Shown: one piece after another, positions 1 through 829 of the stretch | How the letters are laid out: the number at the start of each line of letters is the position of its first letter | How positions within the stretch are numbered: position 1 is the first letter of the stretch | DNA from: an uncultured Bacilli bacterium | Lineage (GTDB): Bacteria > Bacillota_I > Bacilli_A > RF39 > UBA660 | Direction: 5' to 3' | Assembly: GCA_944350445.1 (NCBI GenBank) | Contig: CALVOW010000006.1 | Location: 1-63,705 of the forward strand | Length of the DNA: 63,705 nt | Notes under the pieces: model-generated | Told to the model about the DNA's origin: nothing | What the model saw: only the letters and a program-made list of their open reading frames with translations | Database searches by the model: none | Made by a program: the position numbers and the translations under genes

Positions 1-96
1 TAGAAAATTAAAAATGCTATAACTTATTCCTAGTGTTACTACTAATATTAAAATTATTATTAAACTTATACTTATTAATTTTTTCCTATTTTTCAT
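1..96 (-). CDS. 5' end (runs off window) of a secreted protein paralogous to the DGR target
   Basis: Not in ORF track. ATG at 96 after GGGAG reads MKNRKKLISISLIIILILVVTLGISYSIFNFL, closely matching the target N-terminus MKDRKKVISISLIVSLILIVTLGVTYAAYNTL (44299..46869). Confidence 0.8.
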   Translation of the reverse strand, partial: MKNRKKLISISLIIILILVVTLGISYSIFNFL

Positions 97-112
97 AATT
101 TTCTCCCAAACA

Positions 113-281
113 ACAAAAAACACCTAAAACCCAGTACTTGCGTACTAGTTTTAAGTGTTTAAAATTCTTACTATTTCTTAGAAAATTTGAAAAAGTTAGG
201 TGGTTTAGACCCCCCCCATGGTTGACATAGAGTTAACTTTATTTGTTGAATTATTCATCATATTATCAACTACCTTTCTAA
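113..281 (-). promoter_or_regulatory. Conserved poly-G leader / candidate attenuator, copy 1 (intact)
   Basis: SD AGAAAGG; leader ORF 261..205 MMNNSTNKVNSMSTMGGV*; G8 tract (C210-217 on +); hairpin with GCAA loop plus U-run at 115-160. Homologous to 46954-47051 + 47488-47571. Confidence 0.65.
115..160 (-). terminator. Intrinsic terminator-like hairpin inside leader copy 1
   Basis: Minus strand AAACACTTAAAACTAGTAC-GCAA-GTACTGGGTTTTAGGTGTTTTTT, about 20 nt upstream of the ATG at 96. Confidence 0.65.
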
Positions 282-829
282 TCTACAATAATATCAAAAC
301 TTTCCCCTGTTACTTTAATCTTAGCACTGAAAACTTGATTTGGAGTATCATAATAATAATCAATCCAAAAAACTAACTTAGCATTGATAGTATTATTTAC
401 TCCAAAATTTTCAGCCACATATAAAGTATTATCTTCTATAGTACCTATATTATCTAATTGTATTAATTCATCATCAATGTAAAATGCATAACGAACAGCA
501 CCAAGTGGAATCGTATTATTTTCATTTGGAACAATTTGAATCATTGCATTTATTGGCACTGCACTTGTATTTTGTACTGTAAATGTATAAGGTGTATTAG
601 TCAAACCAACTTCATCAATTACTGGAACAGCATTATTAATTTCTACATTTTCTGATCCTTCGGTATAATTAATTGAAACAAGACCGGATTCAAGGGTATT
701 TTCTCGCGTATCTCTAAAAGTATAAATAAAATAAATTGCTCCAAGCGTTATGCCTAAACACATTACTATTGTTAAAACCAAAAAAAATAGTTTCTTTTTA
801 TTATTATTTCTTAGTTTATCATTTTCCAT
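278..829 (-). CDS. Secreted single-domain protein, TasA/CalY-like (SipW-class signal-like); homologous to the N-terminal domain of the DGR target
   Basis: Basic N-terminus plus hydrophobic stretch. NTLESGLVSINY..INNAVP..FTVQNTS..FWIDY parallels target TGDIYMNY..ITNAVP..FQIVGKNTS..IWIDE. Family call is by eye. Confidence 0.55.
   Translation of the reverse strand: MENDKLRNNNKKKLFFLVLTIVMCLGITLGAIYFIYTFRDTRENTLESGLVSINYTEGSENVEINNAVPVIDEVGLTNTPYTFTVQNTSAVPINAMIQIVPNENNTIPLGAVRYAFYIDDELIQLDNIGTIEDNTLYVAENFGVNNTINAKLVFWIDYYYDTPNQVFSAKIKVTGESFDIIVD

Follow-up and report, generated by a model that had tools for sequence, protein, structure and literature searches.

Fibres of the TasA/CalY type (PF12389) are known from Bacillus, where the subunits, accompanied by SipW and TapA, consist of a signal at the N-terminus and, after it, a jelly-roll beta-sandwich, as described in PMC9674648 and PMC10151520. 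According to the former report, the TasA fibre grows by means of a donor strand at the N-terminus (residues 28-38) after cleavage by SipW, and TapA may supply its first strand. Fibre tips that are varied by a diversity-generating retroelement (DGR) have already been shown for the type V pili of Bacteroides (bioRxiv 10.1101/2024.11.15.621889), and DGRs with multiple or remote targets are known as well (PMC5758913; Treponema denticola, PMC4891356). Here we describe a related arrangement in the first 829 nucleotides of contig C6 of an uncultured Bacilli bacterium; the whole contig, 63,705 nucleotides long, is called the window. We propose that positions 1-829 hold one expression unit of a surface-protein system in an uncultured Bacilli bacterium with a small genome from chicken-gut metagenomes, and we assign this reading a probability of about 0.65.

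All features of the unit lie on the minus strand. A promoter-like site, TTGAAA-17-TATGAT with a TG (857..885), shows 10 of 12 matches and is the best site in its region. It is followed by the gene for a 183-aa stand-alone TasA/camelysin-like module (278..829), in which an N-terminal hydrophobic helix precedes a beta-sandwich. Then come a conserved leader common to a family of paralogs (97..277), with a ribosome-binding site GGGAGA (102..107) that was read from the sequence and is conserved in the leader alignment, and the first 32 codons of a paralog (1..96), recognised by its likeness to the 856-aa DGR target of the window (44299..46869, minus strand) and running off the contig start. In the proposed unit, the promoter at 885-857 would drive an exported 183-aa protein that represents the bare N-terminal module, i.e. 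a hydrophobic signal or anchor helix with a TasA/camelysin-like beta-sandwich. Next would come the leader, with an 18-codon upstream open reading frame (uORF) ending in eight G (G8), an intrinsic terminator and the ribosome-binding site, and finally the start of one ~855-aa paralog, which would comprise the N-terminal module, a beta-sandwich stalk and a C-terminal tip resembling DUF6273 and C-type lectin (CLec) domains.

Like TasA/CalY as described in the two reports cited above, the proteins of this system have an N-terminal signal ahead of a predicted jelly-roll beta-sandwich; small stand-alone subunits of ~180-220 aa occur, and a SipW-type peptidase is present in the genome and lies beside an ortholog in two sister species. 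Unlike TasA/CalY, the 183-aa and 856-aa proteins fall below the Pfam and NCBIfam thresholds, the module mostly occurs at the N-terminus of long multidomain proteins whose passengers vary, there are dozens of module copies per genome, and polymerisation is a proposal. The combination of a fibre- or pilin-type N-terminal domain with a C-terminal variable-repeat (VR) domain of the CLec type, the gut-commensal habit and the stand-alone stalk and anchor homologues elsewhere in the genome recall the Bacteroides tip adhesins as the preprint outlines them. The present system differs in being TasA-like and in belonging to a Gram-positive lineage of another phylum; moreover, one template repeat (TR) serves several dispersed paralogs, and each paralog has a leader with a poly-G uORF. 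The multi-target DGRs outlined in PMC5758913 and PMC4891356 likewise combine one reverse transcriptase (RT) and TR with several genes that bear VRs and lie at a distance from the cassette. Compared with these accounts, the present genome differs in having a target family of at least 12 members within 1.34 Mb, in which active and frozen VRs are mixed, and a second DGR that serves a second family with the same N-terminal module.

Window position 1 is base 1 of contig C6, and the first 55 bases recur exactly in contigs C7 and C32. The contig start is thus an assembly break at a repeat, and the gene at position 96 is cut because the contig ends there. The preliminary description of this locus had suggested extending the contig to the left of base 1; this failed, as no contig end shares a 77-mer with the window start. 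A metagenome scan yielded an identical 1,675-bp contig, which likewise ends inside the leader. The genome (1.34 Mb, 46 contigs, 26% G+C) is 94% complete, and its relatives are labelled as metagenome-assembled genomes (MAGs) of uncultured Bacilli. The first 6 kb of the window occurred in 20 metagenome runs from 12 studies, all of them gut, chicken-gut or unlabelled; 2 of these runs may be the source sample.

The paralog at the contig start belongs to a large family. Window positions 19-96 match positions 46792-46869, at the start of the target gene, with 81% identity over 78 nt, and of the 32 readable codons (96..1, minus strand) 21 encode the same residue as the N-terminus of the target and 11 a different one. 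The near-identity of the two N-termini that had been noticed at the outset was thereby borne out. A phmmer search with the target against all open reading frames (ORFs) of the genome recovered six full-length paralogs of 853-857 aa (C6, C24, C17, C28 and two on C7), six pieces without 5' end (C16, C24, C27, C31, C34, C9) and two N-terminal pieces (C11, C32), to which the piece in the window has to be added. Hence, the long paralogs postulated earlier form a real family, which by sequence comparison comprises at least 12 genes in this genome. Among the 7,999 best word-sharing candidates scored, 242 were public relatives of the target, none of which carries a name or a Pfam domain.

In the AlphaFold2 (AF2) model of the target (predicted local distance difference test, pLDDT, 66), a helix at residues 2-34 is followed by a beta-sandwich at 46-192 and further sandwiches up to ~650, while the C-terminus is poorly modelled, with pLDDT below 50 in the VR domain (residues 695-829). 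Foldseek matched the full-length model to generic tandem beta-sandwich adhesins only, the best being RbmA (9.7e-7). In phmmer searches, residues 790-853 of the target matched the ends of paralogs bearing the Pfam domain DUF6273, which is described as a DGR-target domain in PMC11792537. The C-terminus of the target is accordingly predicted to be a DUF6273/CLec-like tip, a prediction that rests on these phmmer matches because the VR domain was modelled below pLDDT 50.

The DGR cassette of the window (41.7-44.5 kb, minus strand) has an RT (41756..42877; RVT_1, E 4.5e-17), a bAvd-like accessory protein (42864..43223; PF22296, E 1.2e-10), a TR with 32 A in 112 nt (43928..44039) and a VR in the cis target (44379..44490) with 19 mismatches to the TR, 18 of which are at TR adenines; it thus shows the RT, Avd and adenine-specific TR/VR mismatches by which DGRs are recognised. 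We compared the TR without gaps with every VR-like copy in the genome, counting the mismatches at TR adenines relative to all mismatches. Besides the cis VR (18/19), five remote copies were adenine-biased: C24:234-345 (15/15, binomial P 7e-9), in which the GC-rich 3' end seen in the cis VR is also preserved, C9:48204-48315 (17/20), C24:20176-20287 (12/15), C2:38671-38782 in a 158-aa ORF (11/16) and C31:10762-10873 (13/22). The remote VRs predicted earlier therefore exist, with mismatches concentrated at TR adenines. Decayed VRs were found on C16 (17/33), C17 (17/36), C28 (13/50) and C7 (19/56), and C27, C34 and the second C7 copy had no detectable match to the TR.

Variability of the VRs was assessed from near-identical proteins of other assemblies, by comparing the differences outside and inside the VR. 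Variable VRs were found in C24:157-2724, which differs from P0004 at 13 of 818 residues outside and 14 of 37 inside the VR, and in the cis target, which differs from P0002 at 34/816 outside and 12/37 inside. In contrast, the VRs of the C31 paralog (18/664 outside and 0/37 inside against P0051; 54/664 and 0/37 against P0050), of C17 (41/818 and 2/37) and of C27 (28/751 and 3/36) were static. These two classes imply, at the level of sequence, that diversification is ongoing in some remote paralogs, with others being frozen. Logan contigs from four runs aligned to C24:1-3300 were pieces of 100-300 nt that cross-map between paralogs and possibly the TR; all six VR changes listed from these pieces were to the TR-like base, which is also what cross-mapping of the TR would give.

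The continuation of the window's own paralog probably lies on contig C31, judging from its similarity to proteins of other strains. P0050 and P0051 (857 aa) begin with exactly the same 32 residues, and P0051 is 97.4% identical to a 5'-open ORF at the end of C31 (C31:10682-12787), the orientation of which fits. Against this join counts that the contig ends share no k-mer, so that it rests on the 32 identical residues and the orientation. Of the 22 VR mismatches of the C31 ORF, 13 are at TR adenines and several changes fall in the GC-rich 3' end; moreover, the VR is identical in three strains. We think it likely, with somewhat better than even odds, that the window's own paralog has lost the initiation of mutagenic homing (IMH) sequence and that its VR is frozen.

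The preliminary description assumed a single RT and TR, which is wrong for this genome because contig C19 holds a second DGR cassette with its own TR, VR and remote targets (C19:28756-31075; L074). It has an RT split into two ORFs by a frameshift, an Avd-like ORF and a homologue of the MutS-I-like ORF, and all 8 mismatches between its TR (30590-30666) and VR (30897-30973) are at adenines. Remote copies fitting this TR occur at C9:13180-13360 (15/15 mismatches at adenines) and on C22 (11/11), C35 (14/17) and C1 (10/15). The remote VRs of the C19 type lie in proteins of ~630 aa with DUF6273 and the same N-terminal module.

Several further observations concern the two cassettes and their VRs. A small ORF lies between TR and Avd in both (43210-43653, minus strand, and C19:30036-30341). 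In the window this accessory ORF matches MutS domain I (PF01624, 31.4 bits versus a cut-off of 20.6), a mismatch-binding domain whose presence inside a mutagenic retroelement deserves notice. Downstream of the window's RT lies a second TR-like copy (41468-41622; 78% identity to the TR, 89% in the TR 3' flank), which contains stop codons as well as an indel. The TR proper is at least as good a fit for every VR in the assembly, and we treated the copy as a decayed duplicate. The 158-aa ORF C2:38344-38820 contains little beyond the VR-bearing C-terminal domain; it represents a truncated target or else a tip that stands alone. In C24:20096-22117, the VR peptide is the same as in P0004 (0/37 different, against 81/636 outside the VR), an ortholog of another paralog, which points to gene conversion between paralog ends or a chimeric assembly.

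The 183-aa protein is homologous to the N-terminal part of the target. BLASTP aligned the two over 97 residues with 30% identity (E 1e-05), and hhalign matched residues 10-180 of the 183-aa profile to target residues 3-198 over 171 columns with 99.4% probability (E 3.7e-21). The earlier view of 278..829 as a stand-alone version of the target's N-terminal domain thus holds. At E <= 1e-3, the protein has 1,050 relatives counted as cluster representatives, among the best 150 of which the module is nearly always N-terminal, in host proteins of 66-1,650 aa. The module is present in 22 of the 22 sister genomes, with up to 26 matches and dozens of copies per genome, and gave weak matches in 2 of 18 genomes outside the genus. 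In sister species, roughly one in two orthologs of the 183-aa protein is short (183-217 aa), the others being long (390-830 aa), and C-terminal passengers of the module's relatives include Flg_new, PT-HINT, GLUG and Big_2. Therefore, the short form may be a module without passenger rather than a dedicated shaft. Directly upstream of the 183-aa gene the window encodes an ABC transporter (893-2617) and a HerA/DUF87-type ATPase (2596-4347), both on the minus strand; the ABC gene has the same position, upstream of the 183-aa ortholog, in 6 or more of the 11 sister loci that were compared.

The relationship to TasA was examined by structure and by profile. The AF2 model of the 183-aa protein (pLDDT 82.7) has a continuous helix at residues 3-37 and an unstructured stretch at residues 38-48 of the monomer. 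Among 48,161 solved chains, its best match was the TasA fibre 8aur_A (Z 8.0, rmsd 2.9 A, 127 of the ~135 domain residues), followed by a chain at Z 7.0; the TasA-like archaeal bundling pilus 7ueg scored 6.0 and cannulae 5.7. PF12389 matched 6 of 42 aligned family members, and the NCBIfam TasA model weakly matched 2. Two homologues, P0226 and P0244, exceed the PF12389 (Peptidase_M73) cut-off of 22.5 bits with 31.0 and 24.6 bits, and align with the 183-aa protein over the whole domain (E 1.5e-9 and 6.1e-9). C31:95-1678 remained under the cut-off with 18-19.9 bits, and the best named clusters in the ESM-Atlas carry PF12389 (score 0.96). Several results weigh against a TasA-like nature of the module. 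A Z of 8.0 is the tool's own border for a common beta-sandwich; Foldseek gave no match for the 183-aa model at E <= 1e-3 and placed TasA 26th; TasA and AbpX appeared in a PDB profile search at a non-significant E of 0.3-0.4; and the PF12389 matches span positions 1-91 of the 196 profile positions, i.e. the signal and first strands only. Neither the 183-aa protein nor the target matched PF12389 at E <= 0.1, and neither has any other Pfam or NCBIfam match. Because homologues pass PF12389 and these two proteins do not, the module is classified as a distant relative of TasA/camelysin or a member of their superfamily, not as a member of PF12389. On the top rank of 8aur_A, the module is predicted to have a jelly-roll beta-sandwich fold like that of TasA, with the borderline Z and the Foldseek result as caveats.

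A SipW-type peptidase, which the preliminary description had named as something to look for, is encoded at C21:873-1502 (TIGR02228, 93 bits; cut-off 51.85). It is flanked by a 254-aa gene and a 183-aa gene with a G-T-Y-A-W-Y signal. Eleven related loci were compared: in two of them (G006, G015), a 253-272-aa gene and sipW follow immediately downstream of the ortholog of the window's 183-aa gene; in the other nine, the flank is short or holds other genes. The family consensus of the signal is G-x-S-Y-A-x-F, with G-V-T-Y-A-A-Y in the target, and no NCBIfam signal model matched. As with F29 of TasA, which lies in donor strand 28-38 in the account of PMC9674648, the consensus has an aromatic residue two positions past the predicted cleavage site. 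A point against cleavage is that the orthologous group of the 183-aa protein has G-A-I-Y-F-I-Y in place of the family motif, which makes SipW cleavage of this subgroup uncertain. In two loci, G021 (L017) and G022 (L016), the gene downstream of the 183-aa ortholog encodes a 161-162-aa pseudopilin-like protein, the N-terminus of which resembles what we take to be a prepilin (type IV pilin-like) cleavage and methylation motif. The neighbour calls to mind the secretion of a matrix protein linked to type IV pili that PMC11580942 describes for Clostridium perfringens.

The leader is the second conserved element of the unit. Its uORF has 18 codons and a stop (MMNNSTNKVNSMSTMGGV; 205..261, minus strand), and its last codons are written by a G8 run (210..217, C8 on the plus strand), with the stop codon 2 nt past this run. 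A hairpin of ~17 bp with a GCAA loop and a U-run (115..158, minus strand) resembles an intrinsic terminator (one terminator-like site versus 0.1 expected), and the window leader folds at -49.3 kcal/mol (z -4.0). Within its own genome, window 1-294 is matched 25 times, with up to 95% identity and E down to 1.5e-107, and 16 copies of the leader carry the full motif. In the aligned copies, the order is promoter TTGAAA-N17-TAAGAT, Shine-Dalgarno sequence, uORF, G-run, stop, hairpin with U-run, and ribosome-binding site. In the window copy the end of the 183-aa gene takes the place of the promoter, and the leader starts ~20 nt after the stop of this gene. The leader of the cis target (46870..47611, minus strand) consists of a promoter, a uORF with G10, an insertion, a hairpin and a ribosome-binding site. 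The insertion, which resembles a miniature inverted-repeat transposable element (47052..47487; 436 bp, 21-nt perfect inverted ends, 11-bp direct repeat, single copy in the assembly), splits this leader between uORF and terminator. Window 210-264 and 47499-47553 are 85% identical; the upstream leader is thus shared with the target, as had been reported, with the target copy interrupted. Of the 21 G/C runs of at least 7 nt in this genome of 26% G+C, 17 lie within copies of the leader. The tract is G8, G9 or G10 depending on the copy, and the copies on C29 and C30 have an in-frame 3-nt deletion that leaves the uORF open.

The leader is also conserved beyond this genome. Of 23 genomes of the genus, 14 contain the core motif GTYRAY-NNN-G8, with up to 32 copies per genome, against none for the reversed control pattern. 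While the flanks diverge between species, the uORF end ...ST[MW]GG[VAG]-stop is kept with differing stop codons, as are a next ORF with the module's signal and the hairpin with its U-run. We compared 38 distinct leaders from 14 genomes, assuming a ribosome footprint of 15 nt. A stop within 17 nt of the G-run was found in 33 leaders, the frame obtained with one additional G was the longest in 30, and a hairpin with U-run was present in 32. The hairpin was reached by the longest frame in 31 of these 32 leaders, by the second longest in 2 and by the shortest in none. These counts overstate independence because the leaders, being paralogs and their kin, are not independent samples. In the window copy, the +1-G frame ends just past the main start codon, and 2 of the 16 copies in the genome (C28, C31:95-1678) are in the long frame. 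The homopolymer is therefore placed as in a contingency locus, in that a change of its length would alter which frame reaches the terminator.

Campylobacter is known for its poly-G contingency loci. Phase variation by simple-sequence repeats (SSRs), including repeats in mRNA leaders, is described for the G-repeat of tlpB in H. pylori (PMC8295292) and a 5'-UTR repeat in H. influenzae (PMC12721329). As in the SSR systems covered there, long G-runs in an AT-rich genome are concentrated before surface-protein genes and differ in length between copies. Unlike in those systems, the run lies inside a conserved uORF, the three frames of which differ in whether a ribosome reaches the downstream terminator. 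We slightly favour the view that the leader is a ribosome-dependent, phase-variable attenuator driven by slippage. Slippage in the G-run would leave two uORF frames that stop early, so that the terminator forms and the gene is off, and a third frame that carries the ribosome into the terminator, so that the gene is on; each paralog would then be phase-variable. Besides the kinship of the leaders, the lack of length variation within any one locus speaks against this view: none was seen in the assembled contigs, the independent contig L086 also has G8, and the Logan-contig alignment at C24:1-3300 showed no indel at the G-run among the rows listed. No earlier paper on such a design was found by title and the start of the abstract among the matches listed, in a search that was not exhaustive, and we infer that this coupling of a homopolymer in a uORF to a terminator is newly described here. 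Rfam has no family for the leader; at gathering thresholds, the whole window yielded rRNA and tRNAs only, and positions 1-900 gave chance-level matches at E <= 5. A promoter with the G-run in its spacer was considered and rejected, as the best hexamers are 13 or 21 nt apart.

The leader could instead be a regulator that works without slippage, either a sensor uORF with nascent-peptide arrest or an operator bound by protein or RNA at GTTAAC-N5-6-GTCAAC, with the G-run kept for coding or binding. The conserved C-terminal peptide of the uORF (...VN-x-x-ST-x-GG) would fit such a role, as would the same short frame in 33 of the 38 assembled leaders, the lack of observed tract-length variation at any one locus and the two hexamers before the G-run, which form a perfect inverted repeat in some species (L050, L062, L072). 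However, it would not account for Gly-Gly being written as G8-G10 in 38 of 38 leaders from genomes of ~26% G+C, nor for the concentration of long G/C runs in this element, the differing tract lengths, the two copies in the long frame or the single frame per leader that reaches the terminator in 31 of 32 cases; we regard it as a rather unlikely alternative to the slippage-driven attenuator. A second alternative concerns the VRs. The remote VR-like ends might be relics of duplication and gene conversion, with only the cis target being diversified today. This would suit the decayed VRs on C16, C17, C28 and C7 with their many non-adenine mismatches, the VRs that are static between strains (C31, C17, C27), and the VR peptide that C24:20096 and P0004 share across assemblies, by conversion or chimeric assembly. 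It is very unlikely, given that all 15 differences of C24:234-345 are at TR adenines while the GC-rich 3' end is kept, that the protein C24:157-2724 differs from near-identical strains almost only in its VR, and that C9 and C24:20176 show the same adenine pattern. Diversification in trans is the reading we hold with most confidence: the window's DGR very probably rewrites the lectin-like tips of the cis target and several remote paralogs.

For the N-terminal module, our tentative suggestion, at somewhat less than even odds, is that SipW removes the signal and that the module joins or forms fibres by donor-strand exchange, in which bare modules would be the base or shaft and long paralogs the adhesive subunits. 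Alternatively, the module may be an uncleaved signal-anchor with a beta-sandwich stalk, giving monomeric, membrane-held adhesins and a bare 183-aa stub, with neither fibres nor donor-strand exchange. The continuous AF2 helix of both proteins (3-37 and 2-34), the 183-aa subgroup without a small residue at the expected cleavage position, the many unrelated passengers, as for a generic display module, and the many beta-sandwich adhesins that score close behind TasA all agree with an anchor. Yet the single best structural match is the TasA fibre, homologues pass the camelysin/TasA Pfam model including the signal region, two sister species have a SipW-type peptidase gene next to the ortholog, and residues 38-48 are unstructured in the monomer model where TasA, according to PMC9674648, has its donor strand. 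We consider the membrane-held anchor doubtful. A complex prediction with three copies of residues 36-183 scored 0.00 twice and bears neither way on fibre formation.

Taken as a whole, the preliminary description holds for the family of paralogs, for remote VRs, for a TasA-like module and for SipW, but not for its single RT and TR, and the shaft role that it gave to 278..829 is no more than a candidate. The most far-reaching picture would have three stacked levels, with ~16 paralogs on TasA-type fibres, a poly-G switch for each paralog and the tips of a subset rewritten in trans by two DGRs; that all three hold together we consider improbable. No paper joining 'diversity-generating retroelement' and 'TasA' was found in the library searched, and the combination of 'diversity-generating' with camelysin, SipW or Peptidase_M73 was not found among the matches listed.

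DGR-diversified tips are thus established for Bacteroides type V pili, and the present system, if the proposal is true, would be a TasA-like counterpart, showing that a second fibre system had independently come to combine a polymerising N-terminal domain with a hypervariable lectin tip. The leader is a compact design conserved across the genus, which may matter more widely and would also explain why these MAGs break at these places in assembly. If slippage drives it, the leader would provide a new and testable route from simple-sequence repeats to gene switching. Likewise, if the proposal is true, a role would be found for a large family of unnamed proteins, which counts 1,050 cluster representatives and has dozens of genes in each genome.

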